The position numbers and the translations under genes were made by a program. From an uncultured Acidobacteriota bacterium (lineage in GTDB: Bacteria > Acidobacteriota > Polarisedimenticolia > JACPZX01 > DASXTC01): a stretch of 64,000 nt of DNA. Location: contig CAWDYA010000007.1 of NCBI GenBank assembly GCA_963806495.1, positions 371,945-435,944 on the forward strand, in the 5' to 3' direction. The notes beneath the pieces were generated by a model. The model ran no database searches. It saw only the letters and a list, made by a program, of their open reading frames with translations, and was not told where the DNA came from. Positions 3,354 to 63,184 of this stretch are shown here, piece after piece (the stretch's first letter is position 1; every line of letters begins with the position of its first letter).

Positions 3354-4160
3354 TCAGCGGTCCAGGCCGACCGGCCGGGCGGCGGGCCGCTTCGCGCTCA
3401 CGGCGGCCCCGGCACGGGCGGTATCGAGCACGCGGGGCAGCGACGCCCCCGGCCCCGCCATGAGCTTTCTCCGGCCGAGGCGGTGCACGAGCGTCTCGTG
3501 ACGGGTCCTGAGCCCGAGCCTCACGCGGAGCCAGGCGAGGGTGCCGAGCGAGACGTTGATGATGCCGTCGGGCACCTTGGTCCCGGCCCGGTAGTACGGC
3601 ACCTCGACGGTCCAGGAGTTTTCGATCCGGTACCCAAGGCTGCCGGCGATGATCCCCAGCTCCTGCTCGCACGAGTACTTGTAGCCGTTGTAGTAGCTGA
3701 GCAGCTCCGGCACCTTGCCCACCCGGATCACCCGCAGCCCGCACTCGACATCCGCGTAGCGGTAGCCGCTCAGCAGGGAGGCGAACAGCGAGAGACCCCA
3801 GTTGCCGATCTTCTTGAAGCGCGGGTAGTGCGAGAAGTCGCGCCGCGTGAGGAGCATGTCGAGATCCTTCGAGACGGTGGTCTCCGCCAGGCTGTCGATC
3901 GAGTCGACCGTGTGCTGCCCGTCGGCGTCGAACGTATAGAGGAGATCGTCCGGTCTGAGTTCGCCGTCCTCGAGAAGCAGCGCCACGAGCGCGAGCCCGT
4001 CCTTGAGCGCGGAGGCCTTCCCCTTGTTGACCGGGTTGTCGATGACGTAGGAGCGCGGATGCCCCTGGCTCCACCTGGCCAGGATTTCGGGCGAGGCGTC
4101 CCGCGAGCCGTCGTTGACCGCGATCGTGAGGTCCATCCGGGCGCTGAACGTCGCGAGCAC
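3354..4160 (-). CDS. Glycosyltransferase family 2 (polyprenol-phosphate sugar transferase-like)
   Basis: ORF from a GTG start. The conserved GT2 N-terminus 'SEIAVVPVYNEAQNLER' continues in frame upstream to about 4211 with no ATG/GTG/TTG; an ATG at 4213-4215 is one base out of frame, so the true start is probably about 4215 with an indel just after it. 'DADGQH' motif present. Confidence 0.8.
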   Translation of the reverse strand: MLATFSARMDLTIAVNDGSRDASPEILARWSQGHPRSYVIDNPVNKGKASALKDGLALVALLLEDGELRPDDLLYTFDADGQHTVDSIDSLAETTVSKDLDMLLTRRDFSHYPRFKKIGNWGLSLFASLLSGYRYADVECGLRVIRVGKVPELLSYYNGYKYSCEQELGIIAGSLGYRIENSWTVEVPYYRAGTKVPDGIINVSLGTLAWLRVRLGLRTRHETLVHRLGRRKLMAGPGASLPRVLDTARAGAAVSAKRPAARPVGLDR

Positions 4161-4229
4161 CCGCTCGAGGTTCTGCGCCTCGTTGTAGACCGGAACGACG
4201 GCGATCTCTGATCATCGGGGCTCCATGCC

Positions 4230-5240
4230 TCATACCCAGCGCAGGATGTTCTTTACCGACTTGATGTTGAGATCGCCGAGGTAGTTGATCTCGATCGCCG
4301 AGTTGCAGCAGCACTCCGGGCACCGCGCGTAGGTCATGTCCGGCAGCGACTCGAACGCCTTCTTCACCCCGTCCCGCACGCAGTTGCCCCCCTTCGTCTT
4401 GGGGAGCCCCCGCATGTCGAAGCAGGAGTAGCAGTCGCCGTTCGTGTCGATGTAGCAGAACAGCTTGCCGGAGTAGCAGCGGGGGAACTTGTCGTACGTC
4501 CCGTTGAGCCGGTACGTGTCCCGGACGAACTCGAGCGTCGCCTCGGACGCGCCGATGTGCTTGTTGCGCTTCTTCTCCTCGATCAGCCACTCGACCGTGC
4601 GGCGGTGCTCGTCCTTGTCGGGATAGAGCGGATCGAGCCGGTCGCCGGCGAGATAGTGGTCCGACAGGTTTCCGAAATCGCAGTAAAAATCGAGCTCCTC
4701 GGCCTTTCGCACCACCCACTCGACGTAGTCGAGATCGCCCTTGGTGAGGGGCGTGAAGGTCCAGACCTTGATCCCGATCTCACGGAACACCTTGATCGCC
4801 TCGAGGGCTTTCTCCCAGGCGTCCTTCATGTTGCGCTGGCGGTCGTGGACCTCCTTCGGGCCGTCCAGGCTGATGAACACCAGATCGAGCTTGCGCAATT
4901 CCTCGATCTTCCGTCTCGCCAGCAGTCCATTGGAGTTCATGCTGGTGAAGATGCCGTGGCCTTTGGCCGTGTCGATCAGAGTGCCGATGTCGGCGCGCAG
5001 CGACGCCTCGCCGCCGGTCATCACCACGCGCTCGCATCCGAGCTCGCCCAGCTCATCGATGATCCCGACGAGCTGCGGGGTGCTCAGGTCGCGCATGTTC
5101 CTCAGGGGTATGTCGCAATACTCGCACCGCTGGTTGCAGCGGTCCGTAACGGACAAGGAGACGGCGAGAGGGCGTTTGGTGCCCAGAAAATGCGTCTGGG
5201 CGATCTTGGCCCCGGTCGTGATCTCCTGAAGGAGCTTCAT
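4230..5240 (-). CDS. Radical SAM enzyme with C-terminal Cys-rich SPASM/twitch-like domain (MoaA/PqqE-like)
   Basis: 336 aa; 'SVTDRCNQRCEYC' CxxxCxxC motif near the N-terminus; C-terminal region with 9 Cys ('CYSGKLFCYIDTNGDCYSC ... CPECCC'); AGGTG Shine-Dalgarno 6 nt upstream. Confidence 0.85.
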   Translation of the reverse strand: MKLLQEITTGAKIAQTHFLGTKRPLAVSLSVTDRCNQRCEYCDIPLRNMRDLSTPQLVGIIDELGELGCERVVMTGGEASLRADIGTLIDTAKGHGIFTSMNSNGLLARRKIEELRKLDLVFISLDGPKEVHDRQRNMKDAWEKALEAIKVFREIGIKVWTFTPLTKGDLDYVEWVVRKAEELDFYCDFGNLSDHYLAGDRLDPLYPDKDEHRRTVEWLIEEKKRNKHIGASEATLEFVRDTYRLNGTYDKFPRCYSGKLFCYIDTNGDCYSCFDMRGLPKTKGGNCVRDGVKKAFESLPDMTYARCPECCCNSAIEINYLGDLNIKSVKNILRWV

Positions 5241-5342
5241 CGAGACACCTCATATCCGGAAAGCTCATCCGACGCGCCGGGGGATACACGTACCCGCTCG
5301 GGGTGGCGCCGGGATGTGCCGCAGGGGTAGGCAGTGAGTTGT

Positions 5343-5371
5343 CTTATACCCGGTAAGAGTATAACTGTCAA
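5343..5371 (-). promoter_or_regulatory. Candidate sigma70-type promoter for the radical SAM / GT2 pair
   Basis: Minus strand reads TTGACA, 17-nt spacer, TATAAG in the 140-bp gap between the upstream GT2 stop and the radical SAM start. The -35 is consensus; the -10 has G at position 6. Confidence 0.4.
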
Positions 5372-5382
5372 GGAGTTTCGCG

Positions 5383-6972: not shown

Positions 6973-9207
6973 ATGCCGCGACCTGACTTGCCGAGCGAGC
7001 GGAGGACGTCTGCCTTGGGATCCGAAACAACCGTAACGCCCGCAGTGTCCGGAGCGGGACCCCGGCTCCGGGTCGCACTGGCCACGGGCCTGTCCACGGG
7101 CATCCTGCTGGCGCTGATGGAGACGGCGGGCGTGCTCGCAAGCGCCGGCGCCCCCGGGGCCGCGCCCCTGGACATCCTTGTCCTCGCGACCTGGCTGGCC
7201 GTGCCGTATGTGGCGGCCCTGGGCGCGCTCGCGGCGGTCCTCGCGCTGCTCGTCCGCCCCCCGGAGGCCGCCCGGGCCCTGACGGTGGGGCTGGCCGTCG
7301 CCGTCGCTCTCGCGATGTGGCTTCGTACCCTGCTGCGGCTTGGCGAGGGGACCGCGGCGTACCCGGTGCTGGAGCTGCTCCTGGCGGGAGCGGCCTGCGC
7401 CGCCGGGGCCGCCTTCGGAATGCTGGCCGGTCGGGCCCGGCCGGGCGGGTTCCGGCGGGGGCCCTTGCTCTGGGGAGGCCTCGCCGCCCTGGCCGCGCTG
7501 GTGGCGCAGAGCGGCAACGTATCGGGCGCGTTCGGCGCGCCGGGGACACCGGCGCCGCTCGCCTGGCGGGTGGGTCTGGCCGTCGCCGTGGGTCTGGCGG
7601 TGGCGGCGGCGAGGCGCTTCCTGCCAAGGCTCGGGTCTCTGCATCCGGCGGCCGGCCGGATGGCTCGCATCGCCGGATTCGTGGCGGCGGCCGGCTGGGT
7701 CGTCTTCTGCGGCAACGGTGTTGCCCGGATGCTGTCGGTGCCGGAGGTCGCGTGGACATCGTCGCTTCAGGGGGAGGGCTCCGCATCGAGGCCCAACGTC
7801 ATCCTGATCTCAATCGACACCTTGCGGGCGGATCATGTTTCCAGCTACGGCTACAGGCGGCGCACCACGCCGGGGATCGATCAGCTCGCCGCCTCGGGGG
7901 TCCTCTTCGCGCACGCCGTCTCCACGGCGAGCTTCACGACACCGGCGCATGCCTCCATGATGACCGGCCTTTTCCCCACCAGCCACGGGGCGCAGTACCA
8001 GAGCGAGAACCCCGATGCGTTCGTCATCGCTCCGATCGCGCCTTCCGTGCCGACCCTCGCGGAGATCCTCGAGGATCAGGGGTACGACACCGCGGGGTTC
8101 GTCGCCTCGCCCATGGTGGGGCGGCAGTTCGGCTTCTCGCGCGGCTTCCGGGTTTTCGACGACCACTATGATCGCCTCAGCTCGGTGCGCGGGCAGATGT
8201 TCGCGCGCACCACCCCGTTCCGACTGCTCCGGCGGGCCGGCATGTTCGACGCGCGGGATCTCGACGCCGAGCGCAAGGCGGACGAGGTGAACGCCGCGGT
8301 CGTGCGCTGGATCGAGGCCCGACGCGGCGCGCCCGCGCCGTTTTTCCTGTTCGTGCACTACTACGACCCGCACGCGCCGTACGCCGCGCCCGGGCGTCCG
8401 ATCGAGACGGACCCTGCCCCCCGTCACGTCGCGTACGATCTCGATCTGCTGCTGCGCGGCCAGTACACGCTTTCAGTCGGCGCTCGCGACGTGGTGGTCG
8501 CGCGCTACGACGAGGAGATCGCATACACGGATCGCGCGCTGTCGCGCCTGCTCGACGCGCTCGGCCGTTCGGTTCTCGACAACAGCCTGGTCATCGTCAC
8601 CTCGGACCACGGGGAGAGCTTCGGGGAGCACGGCCACTGGGGCCACAACATCCTCCTGTACGAGGATCTCCTCGACGTGCCGTTCATCGTCCGCCCCCCC
8701 GGCGGCGCGGCTGCAGGGCGCGTCATCGACGATGTCATCGTGCAGCCGACCGACATCCTGCCGACGGTTCTCTCGTGGCTCGGCATCCGTGCTCCCGCGG
8801 GGACGCAGGGCAGGGATCTCGCCGGCCTCATCCGCGGGGACGGCGGCGACGCGGCCGGCGAGCATGCCCCCGATCCTCACGTCCGGCAGCTCGCGTTCTC
8901 CGAGCTGGCCCGCAACGTCGGCTGGGTCCGTCGCTGGGGCCCCGCGCTCGACCGCGACCTGCTTGCGGCGCGGGCCGGGCGGTGGAAGTACATCCGTTCG
9001 TCGGCGGGGGCGGAGGAGCTCTACGATCTGCAGGCGGACGCCGCCGAGTCGATCAATCTGGCTTCGGCGGACCCGGTTGCCCTGGACTCGATGCGACAGT
9101 TGATGGACGCTTGGCGGCTCACCCAGACGCGGCATCTCGAAAACGAGAACACTCCCCTCGACGAGGGGCTGCTCGAGAACCTCAGGAGCCTCGGCTATGT
9201 CCAGTAG
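6973..9207 (+). CDS. Membrane-anchored sulfatase-like hydrolase/transferase, Thr-nucleophile type (LtaS/EptA-like), paralog 1
   Basis: Real part of ORF 6739..9207. Hydrophobic multi-helix N-terminus, then 'PNVILISIDTLRADH'. The sulfatase C-x-P-x-R position reads 'FTTPAHASMMTG'. Ends 'DEGLLENLRSLGYVQ'. Confidence 0.75.
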   Translation: MPRPDLPSERRTSALGSETTVTPAVSGAGPRLRVALATGLSTGILLALMETAGVLASAGAPGAAPLDILVLATWLAVPYVAALGALAAVLALLVRPPEAARALTVGLAVAVALAMWLRTLLRLGEGTAAYPVLELLLAGAACAAGAAFGMLAGRARPGGFRRGPLLWGGLAALAALVAQSGNVSGAFGAPGTPAPLAWRVGLAVAVGLAVAAARRFLPRLGSLHPAAGRMARIAGFVAAAGWVVFCGNGVARMLSVPEVAWTSSLQGEGSASRPNVILISIDTLRADHVSSYGYRRRTTPGIDQLAASGVLFAHAVSTASFTTPAHASMMTGLFPTSHGAQYQSENPDAFVIAPIAPSVPTLAEILEDQGYDTAGFVASPMVGRQFGFSRGFRVFDDHYDRLSSVRGQMFARTTPFRLLRRAGMFDARDLDAERKADEVNAAVVRWIEARRGAPAPFFLFVHYYDPHAPYAAPGRPIETDPAPRHVAYDLDLLLRGQYTLSVGARDVVVARYDEEIAYTDRALSRLLDALGRSVLDNSLVIVTSDHGESFGEHGHWGHNILLYEDLLDVPFIVRPPGGAAAGRVIDDVIVQPTDILPTVLSWLGIRAPAGTQGRDLAGLIRGDGGDAAGEHAPDPHVRQLAFSELARNVGWVRRWGPALDRDLLAARAGRWKYIRSSAGAEELYDLQADAAESINLASADPVALDSMRQLMDAWRLTQTRHLENENTPLDEGLLENLRSLGYVQ

Positions 9208-9360
9208 AAACTGCCCGACCATGGTGCGCCTGGCCGGACGGGGCGACCAGTGTGGAAGGCCCGGCCGGCGCGTTGGAAGGCCGCCGGCCGCCGGGGCAGG
9301 CGCATGCCGGCCGGGGCCGGCGCCCGGGGCATCCCGAGGTCTTCGCCGGGCGGCGCCAAG

Positions 9361-11583
9361 ATGAACGAAGTCAAGGGGTTGTCGGATAGCATGGAGCGCG
9401 GCGAGCGCACGGTCGTCGGGCAGTTTCAGCGAGTCACTTCCGGGTTGGTGGTGGCCACCGCCTCGGGTCTGCTCCTCGGTCTGATGGAGACGGCCGGGAT
9501 CCTCTCGCAGCACGGCGCTCCATCGGGATCGTCGATCGACATCCTCGTGACCGCCACCTGGCTGGCGTTGCCGTATGCCGCGACGATCGCGATGGCCGCC
9601 CTGATGGTCGCTTTCGCGGTTCCGGCGCCCGGTCTGTCGCGGGGGCTGGCGGCCGGGATCGGGGGCGGGGTGGTCCTGCTGCTCTGGATCAGGACGCTGG
9701 CGAACCTGGGAGAGGGGAGCGCGGCGTATCCCGTCCTGGAGCTGCTCGTCGTCGGCGTGGCCTGCGCCGGTGGCATGGCGGCCGGGATGCTGGCGGCGAG
9801 ACCGGCCCCGGGGGGAGGCCGGACGCTGATGATCGGGGCCGGTATGGCGGGGCTGGCGGCCCTGGTGGCGTCGAGCCGGAACATCCCCGGTCCTTTCGGC
9901 CGACCCGGGCCGCCCGCAGGCTTCGGCGGCCGGCTGCTCTGGGCGGTGATCGTTGCGGCGGCTGTGGCAGCCGTGATCGTGATGGCACGCGCCCTCGCCT
10001 CACGCGGGGAGGGCGCCCGGTGGCTCGTGCGGGGCCTTGCGGCCGCGAGCGCGGTCGGGTGGGTCATCTACTGCGGATCAGGTTTCGTCCACATGCTGGG
10101 TTGGTCGGGGTCCGAGCCTCGTCTGCCGGAGGCCGGCGCCGTCGAGCCGGGACGGCCCAACGTCATCCTGATATCGATCGATACCCTGCGTGCCGACCAT
10201 CTGTCGTGCTACGGCTACGGGCGGCCGACCACGCCCGGCATCGACGGGTTCGCGGCGTCCGCCGTGCTGTACCGCAACGCCTCGTCCACCGCGAGCTTCA
10301 CCCTCCCCGCGCACGCGTCCATGATGACCGGACAGTTCCCCTCGAGCCACGGCGCGACGTATCAGAACCGAGATCCGGGAAGCTTCACGCTGCGGGGCAT
10401 CCGTCCCGGCTCGCCGATGCTGGCGGAGATCCTGCGCGAGCGCGGATACGACACGGCCGCCTTCGTCAGCGGGCCGCTGCTGAGCCGGCACTTCGGCTTC
10501 GACAGGGGGTTCCGCATCTACGATGATCGGTACGACCGACTCCAGAGCGCGCGCGAGCGACTGTTCGCGCGGTCCTTCCTGTTCCGGGTCCTCTACCGCC
10601 TCGGCGTGTTCTCGGACCGCGATCTCGACGCGCAGCGCACGGCGGGGGAGGTGAACCCGCTCATGGACGACTGGCTCGCAAAGCGCCGGGGATCCACGAG
10701 ACCGTTCTTCCTCTTCGTCCACTACTGGGATCCCCACGGGCCGTACGCCCCGCCGGCCCCGCTCGACGAGCGGCCGGACGGGACTCCTATCCGGGTCGAC
10801 TACGACATGGACCGGCTGCTGATCGGCGACTACACGTACACGCCGGAGGCGCTTGCGGATCTGATCACGCTCTACGACGGCGAGATCCAGTGGGTCGATC
10901 GGCATGTCGCCGCGCTGCTCGACCGGCTGCGCGCCAACAGGCTGCTCGACGGCGCCCTGGTGATCCTGACCGCAGACCATGGCGAGAGCTTCGGTGAGCA
11001 CGATCACTGGGAGCACAGCCGGGTGCTGTACGAGGATGTGCTGCACGTGCCGTTCATCATGAAGCTGCCCGGGGAACGTGACGGCGGCCGCGTGGTCGAG
11101 GACGTCGTCGCGCAGCCCACGGACATCCTTCCCACGGTGCTCGCCGAGGCGGGGATTCAGACGCCGCCAGAGGTCGAGGGGCGGAACCTGCTCGCCTTCC
11201 TCGAGCCGGACGGTGACGCAGGTGCGTCCGGGCAGGCCGAGTCGCACGTCCGGGGGCGCGGGCTGGCGTTTGCGGAGCTCGATCGCAACGTGGACTGGCC
11301 CGAGCGATGGGGCGCCCGGTTCGACCGGGACCTGGTCTCGGCGCGGACCCTCCGTTACAAGTACATCCACTCCTCCACCGGCGAGGAGGAGCTGTACGAT
11401 CTGCGGACGGATCCGGGCGAGCTGACCAATCTGGCGTCCGTGGATCCGTCGGCGGCGTCAGCGATGCGACAGCTCGTCGAGGCATGGCGCAAGGCACTCT
11501 CGATCGCGTCGCCGGATGAGCGACAGGAGCAGATCGATGAAGGGTTGCTGGAGAATCTCAGGAGCCTCGGCTATGTCCAGTGA
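9361..11583 (+). CDS. Membrane-anchored sulfatase-like hydrolase/transferase, Thr-nucleophile type (LtaS/EptA-like), paralog 2
   Basis: Real part of ORF 9250..11583, start 'MNEVKG'. Same architecture as paralog 1 ('PNVILISIDTLRADH', 'FTLPAHASMMTG') and identical C-terminal tail 'DEGLLENLRSLGYVQ'. Confidence 0.75.
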   Translation: MNEVKGLSDSMERGERTVVGQFQRVTSGLVVATASGLLLGLMETAGILSQHGAPSGSSIDILVTATWLALPYAATIAMAALMVAFAVPAPGLSRGLAAGIGGGVVLLLWIRTLANLGEGSAAYPVLELLVVGVACAGGMAAGMLAARPAPGGGRTLMIGAGMAGLAALVASSRNIPGPFGRPGPPAGFGGRLLWAVIVAAAVAAVIVMARALASRGEGARWLVRGLAAASAVGWVIYCGSGFVHMLGWSGSEPRLPEAGAVEPGRPNVILISIDTLRADHLSCYGYGRPTTPGIDGFAASAVLYRNASSTASFTLPAHASMMTGQFPSSHGATYQNRDPGSFTLRGIRPGSPMLAEILRERGYDTAAFVSGPLLSRHFGFDRGFRIYDDRYDRLQSARERLFARSFLFRVLYRLGVFSDRDLDAQRTAGEVNPLMDDWLAKRRGSTRPFFLFVHYWDPHGPYAPPAPLDERPDGTPIRVDYDMDRLLIGDYTYTPEALADLITLYDGEIQWVDRHVAALLDRLRANRLLDGALVILTADHGESFGEHDHWEHSRVLYEDVLHVPFIMKLPGERDGGRVVEDVVAQPTDILPTVLAEAGIQTPPEVEGRNLLAFLEPDGDAGASGQAESHVRGRGLAFAELDRNVDWPERWGARFDRDLVSARTLRYKYIHSSTGEEELYDLRTDPGELTNLASVDPSAASAMRQLVEAWRKALSIASPDERQEQIDEGLLENLRSLGYVQ

Positions 11584-11589
11584 GACGCC

Positions 11590-12754
11590 GTGGGCCATCT
11601 GAAGCGGTTCGCGCTCAACGTCGCGGTGCTGGGCGCCGCCAGCCTCGTGGCCCTGCTCTTCGCGGAAGGGGTGCTCCGGTTCGCCGCCCACAAGGTGCTG
11701 CACGGGGGGGAGTGGGCGACCGCGGGCCAGATCTTCCGCAAGATCGACCCACCGGTCGGTTTCAGTCTTCAGCCGGGCTCCACCCAGATCCTCGTGACCG
11801 GAGGCGCCTACACGTCGCGTGCCACCATCAACTCAGCCGGCATGCGGGATGTCGAGCATGCGCTCGAGCCGGCCCCCGGCGTCAAGCGGATCCTCGTGCT
11901 CGGCGACTCGTTCATGTTCGGGCAGGGTGTCGAGATGGAAGACACTCTGCCGCGCCGGCTGGCGGGGCTCCTGCCGGGGGTGGAGGTGATCAACACCGGG
12001 ACGCCCGGCTACGATCTGGGCCAGTACTACCTGCTGTACGAGGACAGGGCCTACCGGTACAAACCCGACCTGGTGCTCGTCGGCTTCTTCATCAACGATC
12101 TGGCTCGTGCGCGTGAGCTCGACGTGACGTACGGCGAGGACGGGTTGCCCGTCTCGTACCAGCGGAGCGAGGAGATGATAGCGAAGGATCTACGCCGGGG
12201 CCCCGCGCGGGCTCACCGGGGCGGTCTCGTCGTGGTTCAGGGATCATTCGCTGCTCTACGTCCTGGTGCGCAAGCGGCTGGACAATCTGATGGCGGGCCG
12301 GCGCCGCCCCGCAGCGGAATCAACGGACGATCGCGCGGCCGACACGCCGTATCTGTCGGTGTTTCGCAAGCCCGATGCGGACGGGGGAGGGGCCGCGGAC
12401 TGGGCCCGGGCCTGGCGGATCCTCGACGCGCTCAAGCGCAGCGTCGAGACACACGGGGCGCGTTTTGCCGTCATCATGGTCCCCGCTCCGTTTCAGACAT
12501 CGGACGCGGCGTTCGGTACGTGGGTCGAGTGGGCGGGTGCCGAAGGGGAGGACCTGTCACGCAGCGAGCCGCAGGAGATGATGAAGTCCTGGTGCGCGCG
12601 CTCCGGCACGCCCTGCCTGGATCTGCTTCCCGTCTTCGAGAAGGGGGATCGCGACACGCTCTACTTCCCGTACGACATGCACTGGACCGCCAGGGGGCAC
12701 GCAATGGCGGCACGCGCCGTTGCGTCCTTTCTCGAGGCGCGCGGTCTGCCGTGA
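11590..12754 (+). CDS. SGNH/GDSL-family hydrolase (frameshifted)
   Basis: N-terminal part in ORF 11590..12765 ('LGDSFMFGQGV' block I); C-terminal part in ORF 12266..12754 ('YDMHWTARGH' block V). The frames switch between about 12182 and 12240 in a GC-rich run. Confidence 0.65.
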
Positions 12755-20827: not shown

Positions 20828-20841
20828 CCGGGGGCGCCGCC

Positions 20842-24793: not shown

Positions 24794-24816
24794 GTTTCCT
24801 CCTTCCTTTCGTGGCG

Positions 24817-52776: not shown

Positions 52777-52953
52777 CGCACGACTATACTACATCGACCT
52801 CGGGGCACCTCTGGTTGGCGATGGCTACAAGACCCTGGCCGTGAGGGTTGCCGGCGCATGGCTACAGCCTCAACCTGACGGGTGGCCGTCGGGCTCGGCG
52901 CGGACTACGTCCGCACCGTCGCCAGCCGCAGGGTACCGTGCGGAGGACATGCT

Positions 52954-53712: not shown

Positions 53713-53740
53713 TTGACAGGGGTCGACTCCGGGCTATAAT
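53713..53740 (+). promoter_or_regulatory. Consensus sigma70 promoter (TTGACA, 16-nt spacer, TATAAT)
   Basis: Both hexamers match consensus exactly; about 60 nt upstream of the outer-membrane protein start, which has a GAGGAG Shine-Dalgarno. Confidence 0.6.
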
Positions 53741-53801
53741 GCGACCTTTCCCGACACACTTTCGATGGACGTGCCCGCACGTAGCCACGAGGAGACATTA
53801 A

Positions 53802-54368: not shown

Positions 54369-54817
54369 ATCACCCGAAGGTCTTGACAATCCCGCCACGG
54401 TCGGCGTAGAGTTCGCCCAACGCCACTGATCGTTTCGTACATGGACGAGAAACGGGGTCCCTGATCCTCCGTTCGAGTCACCTCAGACCGAACATTCGGT
54501 CGGGGAGGGGCACGATCGAAGGGTGGGGACGGATCCACATTGACTGCGCTGCAGAGACGGGGTATATAGCCGGAAGCCGCTGGTCAATTTCGAAGCGAAC
54601 CAACCCTGCCAGAGCTTCGACTATCAGTAACTGAGGATGACGATCGAGGGGGGCGTGTATCCCCCTCGTGAGAGAGTTCAGGTAAACCGTAACAACCATA
54701 GCTGCCGACGCGCTTTTTGCGGCGGCGGATGCTGACGTCCAGACCGGTGTCCGGACGCCCCGGAGTCGGGTCGAGCGGGGGTATGTCCCCCTCCGCCGGC
54801 GGGTCTCCGCAGAAGGA

Positions 54818-56716
54818 GTGGTCCAGGTGACGTTGGACAGAAAAGCCCACGCGCTTCTGATCCTCGACATCCTCGCGGTGTTCGGCACGGCCCTGGGCGC
54901 GAATTACCTGCGTTTCGACCAGGTCTATCCCGCGGAGTTCACCCACTTCAGCAAGTGGCTGCTCCTCGACATCGTCATCACACCGATCGTCTTCTATGCC
55001 ATGGGGCTGTACCGCAGCGTCTGGCGCTATGCGAGCATCGCCGACCTCAAGCTGATCACATACGCGGTGGGCACCCGCACGATCGTGCTCATCTCCCTCT
55101 TCATCTTCCTCGGATACGATCGCGGCGTGCCGCGCTCGACCACGATCCTCCAGGCGATACTCCTGCTCGGCGCGGTGGGCGGGATCCGGCTCTTCACGCG
55201 CGTCCAGCGTGAGAGGACCCAGCAGAAGAGCCTGAGGAAGAAGACACCGGTGCTGATCGTCGGCGCCGGCGACGCGGGTGAGATCATTCTCAGGGAGCTC
55301 AAGGGGAACACGACGCTGCCCTACAATCCAGTGGGCTTCGTCGATGACGACCCCAGCAAGTGGGGCGTCCGGATCCACGGCGTGCCGGTGCTTGGCGGCA
55401 CGAAGGACATCCCGATGATCGCGCCGCAACGGCATGTCAGCGCGGCGATCATCGCCATCCCCTCTGCTACCGGGCAGGAGCTCACCAGCATCTACCAGGC
55501 GTGTCGCGCGGCCGGCGTGCGAACCAAGACCGTGCCCCCGGTGAGCCAGCTTTTCGAGGGACGGCTGAGCCTGAGCCAGATCCGCAACGTCGAGCTCGAG
55601 GACCTGCTCGGGCGGGATCCGGTGAACGTCGAGATGGATGCGATCCGGACGACCCTCGGCGGCAAGCGCGTGCTGATCACCGGCGGCGCCGGCTCGATCG
55701 GACGCGAGCTGGCGAGGCAGGTGGCCGAGCTCGGTCCGGAGCGTCTGGTCGTTTACGATCGCAACGAGAACTCGATGTACTTCACCGAGATGGAGCTGCG
55801 CAAGCGGTTCCCCGCGGTCGCGATCGACTGTATCGTCGGCGACATCCTGGATCGCCCGAGGCTGGGCGAGGTGATGGAGAGCGCCGCGCCGCACGTCGTG
55901 TTCCATGCCGCCGCGTTCAAGCACGTGCCGATGATGGAGGTCAACGCCACCGAGGCCTTCAAGAACAACGTCTTCGGCACGCGCAACGTCGCGGAGAAGG
56001 CCGCCGAGCTGGGGGTGGAACGGTTCGTGCTCATCTCGACGGACAAGGCGGTCAACCCGATCAGCGTCATGGGCGGCACCAAGCGTCTCGCGGAGCTGGT
56101 GCTCCAGGAGATCCCGGGGACGACACGGTTCGTCTCGGTGCGGTTCGGCAACGTGCTCGGCAGCGACGGCTCGGTGATCCCCCTGTTCAAGAAGCAGATT
56201 GCCGAGGGGGGGCCGGTCACCGTCACCCACCCGGAGGTGTCGCGCTACTTCATGACCATCACCGAGGCGGTGCAGCTCGTGCTGCAGGCCGTGACGATGG
56301 GCACCGGCTCGGAGGTCTTCCTTCTCGACATGGGCAAGCCGATCAAGATCGTCGACCTGGCGAGAAACCTGATCGAGCTGTCCGGCTTCCGGCCGCACGA
56401 GGACATCGAGATCGTGTTCACCGGGCTGCGGCTTGGCGAGAAGCTCCACGAGGAGTTGTACTACCGCGGCGAGGCATGGCTCGACACGACGCACAAGAAG
56501 ATCCTCAAGTTCGGCAACGGGCATCATGCGCCGGCAGGCGTCCTCGCCAGGCTCAAGCTGATGGAGCACGCGCTGCTCAACTCTCCCGCCTCCGAGATGG
56601 ACGGTGTGGTGAGACGCGCTCTCGACGAGTTGATCCCCGAGTTCAAGGGTCCCAAGCCCAAGGACACCCGGGAGCCTCTGCCGGGTCGGCCTTCCGTTCG
56701 CGCCGCGTATATCTAG
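54818..56716 (+). CDS. Membrane-anchored NDP-sugar 4,6-dehydratase/epimerase (CapD/WbpM/PglF-like)
   Basis: 632 aa; N-terminal helices, Rossmann 'VLITGGAGSIGREL', 'FHAAAFKHVPMME', 'STDKAVNP'. The GTG at 54827 may be the real start (better spacing from the AAGGAG Shine-Dalgarno). Confidence 0.85.
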   Translation: MVQVTLDRKAHALLILDILAVFGTALGANYLRFDQVYPAEFTHFSKWLLLDIVITPIVFYAMGLYRSVWRYASIADLKLITYAVGTRTIVLISLFIFLGYDRGVPRSTTILQAILLLGAVGGIRLFTRVQRERTQQKSLRKKTPVLIVGAGDAGEIILRELKGNTTLPYNPVGFVDDDPSKWGVRIHGVPVLGGTKDIPMIAPQRHVSAAIIAIPSATGQELTSIYQACRAAGVRTKTVPPVSQLFEGRLSLSQIRNVELEDLLGRDPVNVEMDAIRTTLGGKRVLITGGAGSIGRELARQVAELGPERLVVYDRNENSMYFTEMELRKRFPAVAIDCIVGDILDRPRLGEVMESAAPHVVFHAAAFKHVPMMEVNATEAFKNNVFGTRNVAEKAAELGVERFVLISTDKAVNPISVMGGTKRLAELVLQEIPGTTRFVSVRFGNVLGSDGSVIPLFKKQIAEGGPVTVTHPEVSRYFMTITEAVQLVLQAVTMGTGSEVFLLDMGKPIKIVDLARNLIELSGFRPHEDIEIVFTGLRLGEKLHEELYYRGEAWLDTTHKKILKFGNGHHAPAGVLARLKLMEHALLNSPASEMDGVVRRALDELIPEFKGPKPKDTREPLPGRPSVRAAYI

Positions 56717-56766
56717 GGGAAAATTTTTTGGGTTCGATTGTTCATTTTCGTTCATTCTTCCTTGAC

Positions 56767-57459
56767 ATGAGGCGTTACGTGCCGTACATGACCGGTCCAT
56801 TCCATATCGATGCGAGGGGAGGGCTTCCGGCCGTGCTCTGTGCCGCCATGGTGCTGCTCGCGCCGCCGTCATGGACGGGTCTTCTCGCGGCTGCCCAGGA
56901 TGATGACCAGCAGGCGCAGGCCGTCGAGGGCGTCCCCGGGGCGACGCCGCCGAACGTGCTCGCGGCCGAGGCTGCATCCGACTATGTCATCGGGGTGGAG
57001 GATGTCCTCTACATCTCGGTGTGGAAGAACCCGGATCTGTCGCGCGAGGTGCCCGTGAGACCGGACGGCAAGATCACGCTGCCGCTCATCGACGACGTGG
57101 ACGCCGTCGGGCTGACGCCGTTGCAGCTCAAGGAGGAGCTGACGAAGCGGTGGAAGTCGTTCATCACGGCGCCCGAGGTCTCGGTCATCGTGACCCAGGT
57201 GAACAGCCTGAAGGTCTACATGGTGGGGGAGATCGCCAAGCCGGGGATCCTGGTGCTCAAGGGCAAGACGCGCCTGCTGCAGGCGATCTCGCTGGCCGGG
57301 GGCTTCACCAATTTCGCCGATCGTTCCAAGATCATCGTGCTGAGAGCCACGGGTAACAACGAGAAGCGGATGGAATTCAACTACAAGAAGATCGTGTCGG
57401 GCAGCCGGCCTGAGGACAACATCGTCCTCCTGCCGGGCGACACGGTCATCGTGCCGTGA
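56767..57459 (+). CDS. Polysaccharide export protein (Wza-like)
   Basis: 230-aa C-terminal part of ORF 55360..57459 from 'MRRYVPYM'; 'YVIGVEDVLYISVWKNPDLS' and SLBB-like 'VYMVGEIAKPGILVLKGKTRLLQAISLAGG'. The upstream 470 aa of the track ORF is artefact. Confidence 0.75.
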   Translation: MRRYVPYMTGPFHIDARGGLPAVLCAAMVLLAPPSWTGLLAAAQDDDQQAQAVEGVPGATPPNVLAAEAASDYVIGVEDVLYISVWKNPDLSREVPVRPDGKITLPLIDDVDAVGLTPLQLKEELTKRWKSFITAPEVSVIVTQVNSLKVYMVGEIAKPGILVLKGKTRLLQAISLAGGFTNFADRSKIIVLRATGNNEKRMEFNYKKIVSGSRPEDNIVLLPGDTVIVP

Positions 57460-57466
57460 GCGCGGC

Positions 57467-58761
57467 GTGCGCCCCGTGCGGATCGGCAAGGCATTCGGAG
57501 GGATCCTGATCGTGACCGCCGTCGTGGTGGCATCGGGCACAGGAGACCCGGCACGCGCGGACGTGTGGGATTTCCACGGCGGCGTGGGGCTCAATCTGGG
57601 CTACACCGAAAACCCCGGCTTCGTCAGCAAGACGAATCCCAACTACGATCCGAACTCGCCGGTCTGCAACCCCAGCGACCCCCTGTACGATCCGGGCGCG
57701 TCCGCCTGCCAGCAGACCACCCCGAGCGAGGCGCGGCGCGGCACGAGAAGCGGATCCCTGAGCTCTGAACGGGGGCCTGTCGGGCGCCTGGGCCACGACG
57801 TCGTTCGACGTGACCTACTCGCCGAGCCTGAACTACTACAAGCGGTTCTCGGGTCTGGACAATGCCAGCCACCGGCTCACCTCGAACTGGCGTCATGACT
57901 ATTCGCCGCGCGCCAGGTTGAGTCTCAGCGAACTGGTCACCTATACGCCGGAGCAGGACGTTGATCCGAACCGACTGAGCTCGAACACGGTTATCGTGCA
58001 GCGCACGACGACCACCATCAGCAACTTCCGCGGCGCGCTGGTGTTCGAAAAGAGTCACAAGACGACGCTCAACTGGACCTTCAGGTCCAACGAGCGTGCC
58101 TTCAGCTCCGACAACTACATCGACACCGGCGAGCAGGAGGCCGGCATGGAGTATCGTCGGATGCTCGGGCGCTTCAGCTCCTTCAACACCGGATATGACT
58201 TCGGCCTGTTCAACTACAAGGGACGGTACCCCGGGGCGGATCACCACAACGTCCACGTGGGGTACGGCTCTGGCCTTCGGCCCCGCCTTCCACGCCGGCG
58301 CCTGGGAGTCGGCTACAACGTGCTGGTGCCCGACGACCCTAACCAGAAGAACTCCGATGGTCTGTTCACCAATGCCACGGTCGGCTTCCACTCGGGTCCG
58401 ACTCGCGGGAACCTGGGATACTCACGGGGGATCCGTCAGGGGGGCGGCGTCTTCGCAGCGTCCCGGGCCGCAAACAGCTTCGGCAACATCCGCTGGGACA
58501 TGACTCCGCACCATCTATGCCGAGATGATGGCCACCTACAACGTCAACGAGCGGATCGCCGGCTCGACGGGCACCGCCCAGGCGAATGACACGGTCAGGA
58601 CCTTCAACGGACGGACCTCCCTCAGCTACCAGCTGGCGCAGGACTGGCGCCTCACTGCCTCGTTCACGCACTACAGGCAGAGCCGTCCTCCGAGTGTCTC
58701 GACCGCGCCCGACGTGAGGAGCAACCGGTACTGGCTCGGTGTCTCATGGAGCTATCGCTGA
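57467..58761 (+). CDS. Putative outer-membrane beta-barrel protein of the EPS export block (two or more frameshifts)
   Basis: Spread over ORFs 57467..57898, 57810..58589 and 58525..58761: signal-like 'MRPVRIGKAFGGILIVTAVVVASG', strand-like 'VTYSPSLNYYKRF', C-terminal 'RYWLGVSWSYR'. Stop overlaps the next start (TGATG). Confidence 0.5.
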
Positions 58762-60269
58762 TGGAGAACCTGATCAACATCCCGGCGTTGCTCAACAGCC
58801 TCAAGCGGCTCTGGTGGGTGCCCGATCCTGACGCTTGCTCGCCGGGATCGGGTTCTCCATCGACTTCGGCCGTAAGTTGCCGAAGATCTACCAGGCGAAC
58901 ACGCTGATCCTGGTCGAGCCGCAGAAGATCCCCACAAACTACGTCAAGCCGATCGTCACCACACCGATCGAGAACAGGCTGAAGACAATCCAGCAGCAGG
59001 TGACGAGCCGCAGCCGCATCGAGACGATCATCGAGTCGGAGAATCTGTACGCCAACCTGCGCGACAGGGTTCCGATGGAGGATCTGGTCGCACGCGTCAA
59101 CCGTGGTATCCGCCTGGAGGTGCGGGGGACGAGCACGTTCCGCATCTACTACGAGGATCGGGATCCCCTGGTCGCGGCGCGCGTTGCCAACGCCCTCGCG
59201 GAGCTGTTCATCAGCGAAAACGTCAACTCGCGCAAGGCCGAGGCCAAGAGCACGACCAGCTTCCTCGAGCAGCAGCTCGGCGAGAGCAAGACGAGCGCTC
59301 GAGCACCAGGAGAAGCTGATCACGGAGTTCAAGAAGACACATCTTGCCGAGCTGCCGACACAGCGGGACGTCAACTTCAGGATGCTGGAGGGGTTCCGCG
59401 CACGCCTGCAGACGACCATGGACGCCATCAGCAAGGAGGAGGACCGGAAGATCCTTCTCCAGTCCCAGCTCGCCGACCTGCCGCAAAGCGGCGCCACCAG
59501 CAAGCAGACGCTCGCCACGCAGCTCGAGGATCTCCGCAAGAAGCTGGTTGAGCTGCGCGGGATCTACACCGAGCAGCATCCCGAGGTCACGCTGGTCAAG
59601 CGGCAGATCGCGCAGCTCGAGCAGGATCTGACGGCCCAGCAGGCCGAGAAGGACCCGAACGCGGCTGCGCCCGCCGCGCCGTCTCTGCGCGAGCAGCAGC
59701 TCACGCAGCAGATCGCGGAAAGCGACCTGCGCCTCAAGGATCTGAAGCGCGACGCAGGCCGGCTGCAGAACGACATCCAGGACTACGAGAACCGGCTGGC
59801 CAACGCCCCGAAGAACGAGCAGGAGCTCCTGACGCTGCAACGCGACTACGACATCATGCAGCAGAGCTACCTCGAGCTGCTGCGCAACAAGACGCAGGCG
59901 GAGATGGCCGAGTCTCTCGAGCAGGAGAGGCAGGGCGAGCAGTTCGTCGTGCTCGACAAGGCGGTGCCTCCGGCGCGTCCCTACAAGCCCAACCTGACGC
60001 AGATCGTCGGGATCGGCTCCGCGATCGGATTCCTTGGCGGCATCGGCATCGCCTTCCTGTTCGACCTCCTGCGTCCGCGGTTCCGCACCGAGGACGAGCT
60101 GACGGCCGCCTACGGGATCCCGGTGCTGGTGAGCATCCCGTCGATTGTGGCCGATCGGCCGAGAAATGTGACGACGTGGAGCCGCAGGCTGCTGCTCGGG
60201 ACAGGGATCCTCGTCGCATTGATCACCGCCGTGGCCGTGATCGGTTTGATGACGGGGTGGGGCCGATGA
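58761..60269 (+). CDS. Polysaccharide chain-length determinant (Wzz/GumC-like) (frameshifted)
   Basis: ATG at 58761 ('MENLINIPALLNSLKRLWW'), continued in ORF 58835..59551 ('LAGIGFSIDF...KIYQANTLILVEPQ') and ORF 59103..60269 (coiled-coil region, C-terminal helix 'GIGSAIGFLGGIGIAFLF'). Frame changes near 58824-58837 and 59293-59298. Confidence 0.65.
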
Positions 60270-60985
60270 GTACCGCAGCCTGGCGGCGCGACCCGGTCCT
60301 CGTCAGCCTGTTCGACGCCACCGGTGTGGCTGGAGAGCAGTTCCGCAAGCTTCAGGTCAAGCTGCGGGCGCTCAAGAACGCCACCGGCGGCAAGATGACC
60401 TCCGTCGTGGTGACCAGCCCGCTCATGGGCGAGGGGAAAACGTCCTGCGCGACCAATCTCGCGCTAGCCATGGCGAACGAACCGCAGCGCCGGGTGCTGT
60501 TGATCGACTGCGATGTCAGGAAGCCGCGGATCCAGGACCACATCGACATCGCCCCGAGGCTTGGCGTCGTCGAGATTCTCGAAGGGAAGGCTACGGTGGA
60601 GGAGGCCACCGTGACCATGCCCGGGGGCAACCTCGATCTGGTGGCGCTGTGCGGCGCCCAGCGCAGCAACGGCAGCCGTCCGACCTCCCTGCCGATGGAG
60701 CGGCTGAAGGACCACTTCCAGGCCCTGGCCGGCCGCTACGAGTTCATCGTCTGCGATGCACCCCCGCTGCTGCCGACGGCCGACGCCGGGGCGCTCGTCG
60801 ATATCTGCGACGGCACGATCATGGTCGTCCGGGCCGGTATCACACCCCGGCCCGCAGTGGCGAAGGCGCTGGCCTCAATCGACAAGAAGAAGTTGATCGG
60901 TTTCCTGCTCAACGGCGTCACCGAGAGCCGCATGGGCAAGTACTACTACCAGTACTACGCCGGTACGTCGAAGGGGGATAAATGA
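60266..60985 (+). CDS. BY-kinase-type P-loop ATPase (CpsD/Wze-like)
   Basis: ORF 60176..60985 with start chosen at 'MSTAAW' (ATGA overlap with the Wzz-like stop); Walker A 'SPLMGEGKTS', Walker A-prime 'LLIDCDVRKP', Walker B 'FIVCDAPP'. Confidence 0.75.
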   Translation: MSTAAWRRDPVLVSLFDATGVAGEQFRKLQVKLRALKNATGGKMTSVVVTSPLMGEGKTSCATNLALAMANEPQRRVLLIDCDVRKPRIQDHIDIAPRLGVVEILEGKATVEEATVTMPGGNLDLVALCGAQRSNGSRPTSLPMERLKDHFQALAGRYEFIVCDAPPLLPTADAGALVDICDGTIMVVRAGITPRPAVAKALASIDKKKLIGFLLNGVTESRMGKYYYQYYAGTSKGDK

Positions 60986-61025
60986 AGCGCCCGGCGATCG
61001 CCGGTGGTGGGGCCGATGGTACGTC

Positions 61026-61515
61026 GTGAGCACTCGGCCGCGCCGGGAGGAGTTCGCCCGTGTGATGCTGGAGCAGCAGGGGCTGGAGGCGTTCCTTCCA
61101 ATGGTCCTCGAGTGGTCCACGGGAAGAGGCCGGATGCGCGAGCAGGTCAGGCACCTCTTCCCCGGTTACCTCTTCGTACGGATGGCCGGGCCCCGGGATT
61201 ATCCGAAGGTGCAATGGACTCCGGGTGTGCGCCGTCTGCTCGGAGCCGGCGAGGAGCCGGAGCCCGTGGACGACGCTCTCGTCGTCGGGATCGCGGGTCG
61301 GATGGGGCACCGCGGATATCTTGTGCAGCGGCCCGAGCTGCATGCCGGAGATCCCGTCGAGGTGCGGTACGGGCCGCTTCTCCGGTCTGTTCGGGGTGGT
61401 GGAGTCACCGAGCACGGCTCGGGAGCGGGTGAGGGTCCTGCTGAGCTTGTTCGACCGTTCGACCTGCGTGGAGCTGGAGGTGAAGGACCTCATCCGATTA
61501 GGGCACCGCTGCTGA
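61026..61515 (+). CDS. NusG-paralog transcription antiterminator (UpxY/LoaP/RfaH-like) (frameshifted)
   Basis: NGN-domain motifs 'WYVVSTRPRREEF' and 'LFPGYLFVR' in ORF 61026..61595; KOW-like end 'FSGLFGVVESP...RVRVLLSLFDRSTCVELE' in ORF 61225..61515. Frames join at 61376-61378. Start uncertain: 'WYV' lies in frame upstream of the GTG. Confidence 0.6.
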
Positions 61516-61575
61516 AAGCCGACGGTGGAGGACGTGAGAGCACCATGGGAGGGGAGATCATGAGAATGGTGGCAC

Positions 61576-61782
61576 ATGGACAGAGACGGCGATGAGATCC
61601 TGACGAGCCGGGAGGCACAGAAGCTTCTCAAGATAGGCAGAACGAAGCTCTGGGCGCTGACGAAGAACGGACATCTTCCGGCTTACAGGATCGGGGACGG
61701 GAAAACCTCCGCCCTTCGATACAAGAGGGTGGAGTTGATGAAGTGGCTCGATCGGAACCGCATCGTCTTCAAAAAGGACTGA
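61576..61782 (+). CDS. Excisionase/AlpA-type helix-turn-helix DNA-binding protein
   Basis: 68 aa; 'LTSREAQKLLKIGRTKLWALTKNGHLPAYRIG' resembles the Xis/HTH_17 family. Confidence 0.6.
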   Translation: MDRDGDEILTSREAQKLLKIGRTKLWALTKNGHLPAYRIGDGKTSALRYKRVELMKWLDRNRIVFKKD

Positions 61783-61802
61783 GGTGGGGGGCCGTCCTGC
61801 GC

Positions 61803-63184
61803 GTGCTGGCGGGAGCCGGCGCGGCGCTGCTGACGGGTGTCGCCCTGTACGCCGTTGCGGTGGAGCCCTGGACCGTGATCGAGACCGATGTCTCGATCCC
61901 GCTGACCGGCCTGCCCGGTCCGCTGGCCGGTTACAGGATCCTTCTCCTATCGGACTTCGAGGCGGACGCTCCCGGAACGCGCGAGCGTCAGGTGGCGGCG
62001 ATCGCCGCGCGCGCGCGTCCCGATCTGATCCTGGTGGCGGGGGACCTCGTGGACAAGGGTATCCATGGCAAGCCGAGGGTTCGGGCATACGGGAAGATGG
62101 CGGCGTACCTCGGCGGCCTGCCGGCGCCCGACGGCGTCTGGTTCGCGCAGGGGCACGGAGAGAGCGCCTCGAGGATCGACGAGGAGGATCTGCTGCGCGC
62201 TCTGGAGGCGGGCGGCGTGCATCCGCTCCTCAACGAGGTGGCCTTCATTCAAAGAGAGGGCGCCTCGCTCGCGCTGATCGGCGTACGGATCCACGACTAC
62301 GCGGGGAAGGGGAAGTGGACGGTGGGACACGACGGCGTCATCACGGAGGGCCCGGGCAACCGGGAGTCCTACGTGGAGTACCGCGAGCCGGGGTGCGCGG
62401 CGTGGAGAGACTATGAGCTCAGCGGCAGGATGCGTTTCGGGAGCCCCCACGACTGGGCCGGCTTCCTGGTGCACAGCCGGCTGGGAAAGCGGGAGGACCG
62501 TTTCTACTTCGGTGTCCGTCGTGACTATCTGCCCTACCTCGGGGTCTCGGCGCACGGCACCGTCTACACCAGCGGCACCTTCACGCGGGCCGAGCAGATG
62601 AGCGCCGGCGTCTGGCACCGTTTCCACGCGAAGGTGGAGACCACCAACGCGGGCGTCCGTTTCCGGGCGCGGGCGTGGCGGGAGACCGAGAGCGAGCCCG
62701 AAGGGTGGGATTTCGACTATCTCGACGCCACCGACACCCGGATCGAGTCGGGCACCGTCGGCCTGTACGGCGAGGGGCCCGGAGTCAAGACCTTCTCCGA
62801 CCTGAGGATCACGGCGGGGGACGGGACCGGGCGCTGGGAGGAGCCGAAGGGCGCGGACTTCCTCATGGGCCTGCTCTCCCGGGTGCCCGAGGGGACACCG
62901 GCGATCGTGCTTTCCCACACGCCCGATATCTACGAGGACGCGGCCGAGCTGGACGTGCCGCTGACGCTTGCGGGCCACACACGGGGGGGCAGATCCGACT
63001 GCCGTTCTTCGGCCCGATCGTCGTCGACACGAGCGTGGGGCGCGACAGGGCTTCAGGGCTCTCCGGTCGCAACGGGCGTTTCCTCTATGTGACCCGGGGT
63101 ATCGGCACCAGCCGGCTGCCTGCGCGTTTCCTCGCGCCGCCCGAGGCCACGGTCATCACGCTGACGGGCGACCGCGATGACTAG
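61803..63184 (+). CDS. Membrane-anchored metallophosphoesterase (calcineurin-like) (frameshift at a G7 run)
   Basis: ORF 61743..63092 holds 'ILLLSDFEAD', 'LILVAGDLVDKG', 'LAGHT'; ORF 62675..63184 holds the continuation 'GGQIRLPFFGPIV'. The join is a run of seven G at about 62953-62959; one more G restores 'LAGHTRGGQIRLPFFGP'. Start GTG at 61803 is tentative. Confidence 0.6.

Follow-up and report, generated by a model that had tools for sequence, protein, structure and literature searches.

Single-base frame breaks in an Acidobacteriota contig are probably consensus errors of a metagenome assembly

Sixteen single-base length changes interrupt 11 of the approximately 47 protein genes in the window, by which we mean the whole 64-kb stretch of DNA that was analysed. 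They are probably consensus errors in a long-read metagenome assembly, and not features of the organism. An earlier note on this DNA had listed 15 sites where recognisable genes change frame, and all 15 proved to be real reading-frame breaks when tested by tblastn with orthologues encoded by one uninterrupted ORF elsewhere, in other assemblies: at each site, the orthologue alignment runs in one frame before the break and in another after it. That these are mostly assembly errors, as the same note had supposed, is also the reading best supported by the lesion spectrum, the insertion bias, the conserved flanks and the exact restoration of protein lengths, and we regard it as likely to be correct.

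Indel positions were refined by an edit scan, in which each possible single-base edit was scored against orthologues. Four related loci (L001, L003, L081 and L082) were compared, and none of their corresponding genes is broken. The orthologues on contigs with k141_ names (L001, L082), which are MEGAHIT-style names and probably denote short-read assemblies, are all intact and serve as a control. A frame-HMM, run over the window as an independent detector of frame changes, together with orthologue alignment revealed no frameshifts in the window beyond the sites listed earlier; 14 additional changes called by the HMM were rejected as ordinary gene boundaries. The events occur at a density of 0.27 per kb of coding sequence, or about one per 3.8 kb, and four genes are hit more than once. 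In 14 cases the window carries one surplus base ("extra" below) and in two a base is missing. All 16 are corrected by a one-base edit, which yields a full-length protein collinear with its orthologues and brings three proteins to exact orthologue lengths: 286 aa for the GT2 glycosyltransferase (P0392), 713 aa for the peptidase (P0001, 80% identity over 100% of its length) and 990 aa for the phosphodiesterase-TPR protein (P0121, 77% identity, 100% coverage). Corrected models were made for every gene in the following list, in which coordinates are window positions.

3354-4215, minus strand, GT2 glycosyltransferase gene: extra base at 4207-4210, in codons 3-4, putting the start codon out of frame.
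11590-12754, plus strand, SGNH/GDSL hydrolase gene: extra base at 12195-12206, inside CCGGGGCCCCGC (alignment and edit scan).
24817-26861, minus strand, sulfatase-like paralog 3 gene, first frameshift: extra base at 25275-25278 (L081 alignment, edit scan).
The same gene, minus strand, second frameshift: extra base at 24915-24916 (L081 alignment, edit scan).
26858-29000, minus strand, HEMGH M3-like peptidase gene: extra base at 27926-27930 (GATCCCG, expected GATCCG).
37217-40189, plus strand, phosphodiesterase-TPR gene: missing base at 38158-38164 (P0121 alignment, edit scan).
The same gene, plus strand: extra base at 38656-38662 (AAGATTCGG, expected K-I-G).
40234-41383, minus strand, FAD-dependent (DAO family) oxidoreductase gene: extra base at 40324-40327, near the 3´ end.
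51609-52788, minus strand, class I/II aminotransferase gene: extra C at 52092 (CTCC ACC, expected CTC ACC).
57467-58761, plus strand, outer-membrane barrel gene, first frameshift: extra base at 57759-57770 (L001 alignment, edit scan).
The same gene, plus strand, second frameshift: extra base at 58505-58516 (L001 alignment, edit scan).
About 58700-60269, plus strand, Wzz/GNVR chain-length-regulator gene: two extra bases, at 58820-58825 and 58833-58840, about 13 nt apart.
The same gene, plus strand, further frameshift: extra base at 59286-59297 (L001/L003 alignment, edit scan).
61004-61515, plus strand, NusG-paralog gene: extra base at 61376-61377 (CCG C TTC; L001 alignment, edit scan).
61743-63172, plus strand, calcineurin-like phosphoesterase gene: one G missing from a G7 run at 62983-62989.

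The GT2 gene starts ATG ATC AGA G ATC GCC GTC, where orthologues begin M-[IL]-K-IAVVPVYNE, and the public gene call (P0391) is a 260-aa truncation that begins MDLTIAV. For the SGNH hydrolase, the 385-aa L082 orthologue aligns in frame 1 over residues 8-203 (ending at 12204) and in frame 2 over residues 202-385 (starting at 12200), and the Pfam Lipase_GDSL_2 match is divided over two frames (1-95 and 124-177). The 680-aa L081 orthologue of sulfatase-like paralog 3 passes through three frames: -3 for residues 1-528 (ending at 25278), -1 for residues 530-650 (25273 to 24911) and -2 for residues 649-680 (starting at 24915). The peptidase, which has more than 100 full-length homologues, aligns with its 713-aa orthologues (L081/P0001) over residues 1-366 in frame -3 and 358-713 in frame -1; the junction reads E/A-D-P-Y-H-P in orthologues.

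At the first break in the phosphodiesterase-TPR gene, the segment matching P0121 ends with ATDRI at 38161, which is also where the following residues start (AYQLF in P0121, SYQLF in the window), such that one base is common to two codons. At the second, the frame 1 alignments with P0121, P0122 and P0123 end at 38658-38694 and those of frame 2 begin at 38657-38663. The frameshift in the FAD oxidoreductase gene swaps the last approximately 30 residues: most of the best 150 homologues cease aligning at about query residue 381 with some 25-30 of their own residues left, and the C-terminus of one relative (P0241, residues 355-384) is found in the next frame at 40326-40237.

Further breaks fall between 51.6 and 63.2 kb, where the polysaccharide-export cluster lies. 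The aminotransferase orthologues of L001 and L003 are divided between frames -2 and -3 at 52096/52091, the Pfam Aminotran_1_2 match is in two pieces (3-201 and 209-361), and a closer relative (P0527, 85-93% identity) reads GMEDL|TITLSGF over the junction; the break is real but lies about 45 nt from the position near 52050 originally given. The 436-aa L001 orthologue of the outer-membrane barrel aligns in frame 2 over residues 12-106, in frame 3 over 97-338 and in frame 1 over 320-436, and the second barrel site is bounded by a TGA immediately upstream (about 58502-58504) in the downstream reading frame. Near 58830 in the Wzz-like gene a single event had been listed, and the frame break there is real, but two insertions fit better than one missing base (291 versus 242 in edit scoring): WWVP, ILTL and LAGI lie in three consecutive frames of the window, where L001 reads WWVPVLTLLAGT. 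Further on, L001 and L003 align in frame 2 over residues 70-221 (ending at 59290) and in frame 3 over residues 224-543 (starting at 59298), leaving 7 nt for 2 residues. The NusG-paralog break sits after the NGN domain and before the C-terminal part, with the L001 match ending in EVRGGPF in frame 3 to 61379 and resuming at GPFAGLMGLVE in frame 1 from 61372; the Pfam NusG match (2-89/93) is in the first frame only. For the phosphoesterase, frame 3 is aligned to 62990 and frame 2 from 62978. One G is indeed missing, as the earlier note had it, though the G7 run lies 30 nt from the 62953-62959 reported; G8 would restore HT-R-GGQIRLP, where L001 and L003 read LAGHTQGGQ(I/V)RLP.

The kinds of lesion bear on their origin. 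Among the broken genes, comparison of the window with orthologues showed neither nonsense codons nor IS elements nor larger deletions, and same-frame ORF breaks within genes are absent from the window; if nonsense changes made up as little as 25% of real disrupting lesions, a set of 16 would lack them with a probability of 0.01. The excess of extra over missing bases is significant (two-sided binomial P = 0.004), and most events are at non-repeat sites. Spontaneous slippage indels do not usually show such a pattern. The corrected frames contain no stops, and identity to orthologues downstream of the breaks is equal to or above that upstream, in a comparison of low power for very recent events (by segment, peptidase 73% and 87%; phosphodiesterase-TPR 75%, 77% and 77%; aminotransferase 73% and 73%).

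We infer a technical cause. The source contig belongs to an uncultured, Polarisedimenticolia-like member of the Acidobacteriota, and a length of 456,094 nt for such a high-GC soil/sediment-type bacterium points to long reads as the data behind it. Where read depth or agreement was poor, consensus calling or polishing would have kept a spurious base 14 times and lost a base twice, and gene callers working on that sequence would cut genes short, split them or fuse them falsely. The two same-direction insertions 13 nt apart, together with five events inside 1.6 kb (57.7-59.3 kb), look like a patch of poor consensus, and local depth or strain mixing may lie behind this denser stretch. There is good documentation that long-read assemblies, above all those of low depth, retain indels that cause frameshifts (PMC9262707; bioRxiv 10.1101/2021.08.23.457338). 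The pattern seen here nonetheless departs from the classic nanopore one, in that frame breaks are rare in homopolymers: only one of the 16 events lies in a long run (the G7), no more than two lie in runs of four or more bases even if a G4C4 site is counted, and 33 of the 34 runs of six or more bases carry no break. The homopolymer signature of indel error to which the earlier note pointed therefore holds at the G7 site but not as a general pattern.

The errors could instead be systematic, arising in base calling at methylated GATC (Dam-type) sites and not at random under low depth, which we consider unlikely. GATC lies within 3 nt of 7 of 15 indel intervals against 2.4 expected (nominal P = 0.005) and ranks first among 4-mers for closeness to indels before correction. 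In the GT2, peptidase, aminotransferase and Wzz genes extra bases adjoin it, and at 38656-38662 the window has GATTC where the K-I-G of orthologues most simply implies AAG ATC GGA. However, the association is not significant once corrected for 129 4-mers (approximately 0.6), and the motif is very common in the window, with one copy in every 97 nt or so; its total of 660 is fully accounted for by trinucleotide content (671 expected). For five or six events there is no GATC inside 20 nt. Published methylation-linked nanopore errors are, moreover, mostly substitutions.

Alternatively, the indels could be real and very recent mutations in a lineage or population that is losing genes, particularly in the export cluster, with relaxed selection or a mutator background as the cause. 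Half of the events (8/16) fall in that cluster, which holds 18% of coding sequence (about 4-fold enrichment, P = 0.004) and has a lower GC content (0.635-0.64); such enrichment would be equally expected from relaxed selection there, and the repeated hits in four genes could be read in the same way. The intact purA, hutU, hutH, asnB and Cys/Met PLP enzyme genes would also fit. It was correctly observed earlier that housekeeping genes are intact, in that six clearly housekeeping genes are unbroken, but this carries little weight, since their 8.6 kb would be expected to receive 2.3 events and would escape with none at a probability of 0.10, which is not significant; an aminotransferase and an FAD oxidoreductase are, besides, among the genes hit. 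Against real mutation stand the ratio of frameshifts to other lesion types (16:0), the strong bias to insertions at mostly non-repeat sites, the paired insertions 13 nt apart, and the lack of decay or stops behind the breaks. The functional classes are mixed (aminotransferase, FAD oxidoreductase and peptidase as well as envelope genes), with metabolic and peptidase genes distant from the cluster also hit, and the number of distinct genes affected is compatible with random placement (11 observed, 12.6 expected, P = 0.19). We therefore find this reading quite improbable, and more doubtful still its specific form, 16 real recent frameshifts, half in the export cluster, from insertion-biased mutation or ongoing loss of capsule/EPS export. 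Were the indels real, they would be a record of several genes inactivated very recently in a lineage of environmental Acidobacteriota.

It is extremely improbable that some sites serve programmed ribosomal frameshifting, transcriptional slippage or G-run phase variation: the G7/G8 tract is a repeat type capable of phase variation, but it lies in the last approximately 13% of the phosphoesterase gene (about residue 415 of 476) and not close to the 5´ end, neither a slippery heptamer nor a homopolymer accompanies any of the other 15 events and the sites share no motif, the 11 affected genes are unrelated, and the single-frame orthologues of each (from one locus to more than 100 homologues) largely refute recoding.

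Taken as consensus errors, the breaks are chiefly an issue of data quality, since about a quarter of the contig's genes yield truncated, split or falsely fused products. The warning that ORF calling would fragment and fuse genes here was borne out. No fewer than seven pieces of broken genes from the window, truncated or out of frame, already stand as separate public "proteins", all from the one 456,094-nt NCBI/ENA contig: the 260-aa GT2, a 384-aa peptidase, 347-aa and 484-aa pieces of phosphodiesterase-TPR, a 449-aa phosphoesterase, a 148-aa aminotransferase and a 259-aa barrel. In addition, an ORF at 23978-25135/25309 falsely links a sulfatase segment to a dienelactone hydrolase gene. If the frames are left uncorrected, annotation, pathway calls, pseudogene counts and selection analyses on this genome would be distorted. 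The proteins of the source contig are catalogued without names.

Several known systems offer a comparison. Decaying genomes, such as those of host-restricted pathogens, carry frameshifted pseudogenes, and the window resembles them in that 23% of its genes are frameshift-interrupted, some several times. It differs from them in lacking nonsense mutations, IS elements, deletions and decay behind the breaks, in that its indels are mostly non-repeat insertions, and in its source organism, a free-living-type, large-genome, 68% GC Acidobacteriota relative whose own relatives keep the genes intact. Several indels touch GATC, as in consensus errors at methylation motifs in nanopore data, but those are mainly substitutions and the association here is lost after multiple-test correction. 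Usual nanopore errors are described as errors of homopolymer length, whereas the events in the window are mostly outside homopolymers and favour insertions over deletions by 14:2. This ratio resembles the raw-read error profile quoted for PacBio CLR; for PacBio raw reads, approximately 8% insertions and 3% deletions are given (bioRxiv 10.1101/2021.08.23.457338). The IDEEL test, proovframe and Kastor all deal with residual indels that truncate predicted proteins in long-read (Nanopore, PacBio CLR) assemblies (PMC9262707; bioRxiv 10.1101/2021.08.23.457338; PMC12007338). As in those assemblies, single-base indels break conserved genes here at one per few kb, orthologue-guided one-base edits restore the genes exactly, and the fragmented products of a large contig from an uncultured organism have spread to databases.

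Because long ORFs arise in many frames at the window's GC content of 68%, changes of coding frame were located with a seven-state frame HMM built on a codon-usage model trained on the window, and each same-strand change was then checked against Pfam and against orthologues (tblastn of orthologue proteins against the window). The nearest relatives, metagenome-assembled genomes, carry the label Candidatus Polarisedimenticolia / Acidobacteriota. The Polysacc_synt_2 gene (54818-56713) encodes a protein 78%, 69% and 65% identical to those of the related loci L001 (DASXTC010000045.1), L002 and L003, respectively. Gene order is kept in L001 and L003 over 45.6-64 kb, in the related locus L081 over 24.4-32.7 kb, and partly in L082; L082 and L001 belong to the same MAG. 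Of two metagenome scans for a same-species relative, one gave no match and the other a single short contig, 63% identical. Protein identity to the best relatives is 77-95%, so that they offer no near-identical independent assembly for comparison.

An earlier note had reported a high density of single-nucleotide frameshifts in otherwise intact genes. This was confirmed, although some coordinates were slightly off and one site is better explained by two events. In each gene listed below, the orthologue can be followed in one frame as far as a defined place, and then in another (tblastn):

Aminotransferase: frame split against L001 and L003, with the Pfam Aminotran_1_2 match split into 3-201 and 209-361
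Outer-membrane barrel: orthologue spread over three frames
Wzz/GNVR protein: orthologue spread over three frames
NusG paralog: frame split in the orthologue alignment
Phosphoesterase: frame split in the orthologue alignment
Sulfatase-like 3: three frames against a 680-aa L081 protein
HEMGH (M3-like) peptidase: frame split in the orthologue alignment
SGNH hydrolase: frame split in the orthologue alignment and in Pfam
Phosphodiesterase-TPR: three segments against the homologues P0121-P0123

The FAD oxidoreductase first passed as intact (Pfam DAO, 1-344 of 353), a reading overturned by a C-terminal shift in an exhaustive homologue search. With most of the 150 best homologues the alignment ends at about residue 381, leaving 25-30 of their residues over, and the C-terminus of the best homologue resumes in the next frame at 40326-40237. 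The GT2 gene has no usable start codon; the window reads ATG ATC AGA G ATC GCC GTC..., and orthologues start M-[IL]-K-IAVVPVYNE. Joining the frames gives proteins of 713 aa for the peptidase (best match P0001, 713 aa, 80% identity, full coverage), 990 aa for the phosphodiesterase-TPR (P0121, 990 aa, 77% identity) and 286 aa for GT2 (P0392, 286 aa, 84% identity). The corresponding genes in L001, L003, L081, L082 and the best database homologues are all unbroken. The frame HMM, Pfam and orthologue alignments revealed no frameshifts in the window beyond the sites already noted; 14 further HMM transitions (6133, 16111, 17780, 26859, 29001, 31649, 35056, 36257, 43866, 44280, 57455, 60242, 60978 and 61777) were ordinary gene boundaries on checking.

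To define the edits, all single-base deletions and insertions over a region of about 120 nt per site were scanned, and the translations scored against orthologues. One base had to be removed at twelve sites and, at first sight, added at three. At about 58830 in the Wzz gene, a single missing base was rejected, since two separate extra bases fit better (score 291 against 242); WWVP, ILTL and LAGI lie in three successive frames of the window, against WWVPVLTLLAGT in L001. The total of 16 events comprises 14 extra bases and 2 missing ones (two-sided binomial P=0.004). They affect 11 of about 47 protein genes, a density of one per 3.8 kb of coding DNA. The aminotransferase event is a single extra C at 52092 (CTC-C-ACC), fixed by a closer relative, P0527 (85-93% identity). 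The phosphoesterase is one G short in a G7 run at 62983-62989, for which the coordinates first reported were 30 nt too low. Apart from this event and possibly that in the SGNH gene (G4C4), none lies in a run of four or more; most events are insertions at non-repeat sites. Of the 34 homopolymers of at least six bases in the window, 33 carry no frame break.

We consider it likely, from sequence comparison, that the frame breaks are consensus errors, in keeping with the earlier attribution of most of them to assembly. The lesions form one uniform class of single-base length changes, including two same-direction insertions 13 nt apart; in-frame stops, IS elements and larger deletions are all absent. 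Similarity to orthologues past each break equals that before it, and the corrected frames contain no stops. Genes of mixed classes are affected (aminotransferase, FAD oxidoreductase and peptidase, plus envelope and polysaccharide genes), and the number of distinct genes hit is compatible with random placement (P=0.19). The source is a 456,094-nt contig in NCBI and ENA with unnamed proteins; such a length, for an uncultured high-GC bacterium, points to a long-read metagenome assembly. Frameshifting residual indels are known from such assemblies, above all where depth is modest or strains are mixed (PMC9262707; bioRxiv 10.1101/2021.08.23.457338), and one large Nanopore-only MAG catalogue used a single Medaka polishing round (PMC12313526).

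Real, recent pseudogenisation is one alternative. The one observation in its favour is that the polysaccharide-export cluster (51.6-63.2 kb), which is also lower in GC, holds 8 of the 16 events on 18% of the coding sequence, an enrichment of about 4-fold (P=0.004). The densest run, five indels within 1.6 kb, falls in 54000-60000, where GC is 0.635-0.64 against 0.66-0.72 in the remaining window. Lower depth or strain heterogeneity at a variable surface-polysaccharide locus would produce the same enrichment. The claim that housekeeping genes are intact held for six clear ones, with zero events, but is weak, as these span 8.6 kb with 2.3 events expected and a 0.10 chance of zero. Methylation-linked errors at GATC, a second possibility, have nominal support: 7 of 15 indel intervals lie within 3 nt of a GATC, against 2.4 expected (P=0.005), an enrichment lost after correction for 129 4-mers. 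A strong link, which seemed to follow while GATC was taken to be rare from base composition, was set aside: with the real count the nominal P is about 0.005-0.02, which is not significant over all 4-mers. The 660 GATC copies in the window exceed the mononucleotide expectation (190) 3.5-fold and match the trinucleotide expectation of 671; this abundance is fully explained by trinucleotide and codon content, and thus alone carries no information on Dam methylation or restriction avoidance. The single-frame orthologues and the lack of a slippery motif rule out programmed frameshifting or phase variation everywhere except at the G-run.

Repeated families and tRNA genes in the window are as follows:

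7043-9207, 9250-11583 and 24817-26861: three sulfatase-like paralogs, including a tandem pair
11590-12754 and 46705-47830: SGNH/GDSL hydrolase paralogs
41496-41571: tRNA-Lys (TTT), well over the Rfam threshold
44853-44930: tRNA-Glu (TTC), well over the Rfam threshold

Each of the two protein families has a frameshift in only one copy, and no indel is evident in either tRNA gene, because both score well over the threshold.

The cluster itself encodes, within 54000-60000, a PglF-like dehydratase, a Wza-like protein, the barrel, Wzz/GNVR and a BY-kinase ATPase. The order BY-kinase ATPase, small HTH_17 (excisionase-type) gene, calcineurin-like phosphoesterase (60281-63172) is common to L001 and L003; the NusG paralog in the ATPase-HTH gap was matched only in L001. 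About 1 kb (52779-53801) separates the aminotransferase gene from the first gene of the cluster. A hidden shattered gene was rejected there, as six frames give no coding signal (GC1, GC2 and GC3 all about 0.65), and Rfam gave nothing convincing (one chance-level match, E=0.71). A predicted promoter with perfect sigma-70 consensus (TTGACA-16 nt-TATAAT, 53713-53740) closes this gene-free spacer, 62 nt upstream of the OMP_b-brl gene (53802). The L001 counterpart appears far shorter, as estimated from alignments. The spacer may serve as a long leader, or as a regulatory region, for a cluster with its own NusG paralog.

The finding is of the artefact type; its biological interest is low and its value is practical, for users of the genome. 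The warning that ORF calling would fragment genes and create false fusions was borne out. Exact look-ups found the truncated or out-of-frame products in a public protein collection, all assigned to the 456-kb contig:

GT2: 260-aa product
Peptidase: 384-aa fragment
Phosphodiesterase-TPR: 347-aa and 484-aa fragments
Phosphoesterase: 449-aa product
Aminotransferase: 148-aa fragment
Barrel: 259-aa fragment

The stop-to-stop ORF at 23978-25135/25309 (minus strand, 443 aa) joins the out-of-frame middle of sulfatase-like 3 to a dienelactone hydrolase gene, whose orthologue has 284 aa; read from the alignments, ORF 23978-25309 is a false fusion produced by the frameshifts. In another assembly, the related contig L084 (ENA ERZ25039549 contig_44393) has three short adjoining gene calls at 20434-21750 (88, 91 and 153 aa), of which one matches SecDF_P1_head. 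They look like a fragmented SecDF gene, which hints at the same frameshift problem there; the contig bears a generic contig_NNN name of the kind that Flye gives.

The profile of the breaks, with insertions outside homopolymers, is unlike the textbook nanopore pattern; it is nearer to the raw error of PacBio CLR, which the proovframe preprint gives as rich in insertions (bioRxiv 10.1101/2021.08.23.457338).
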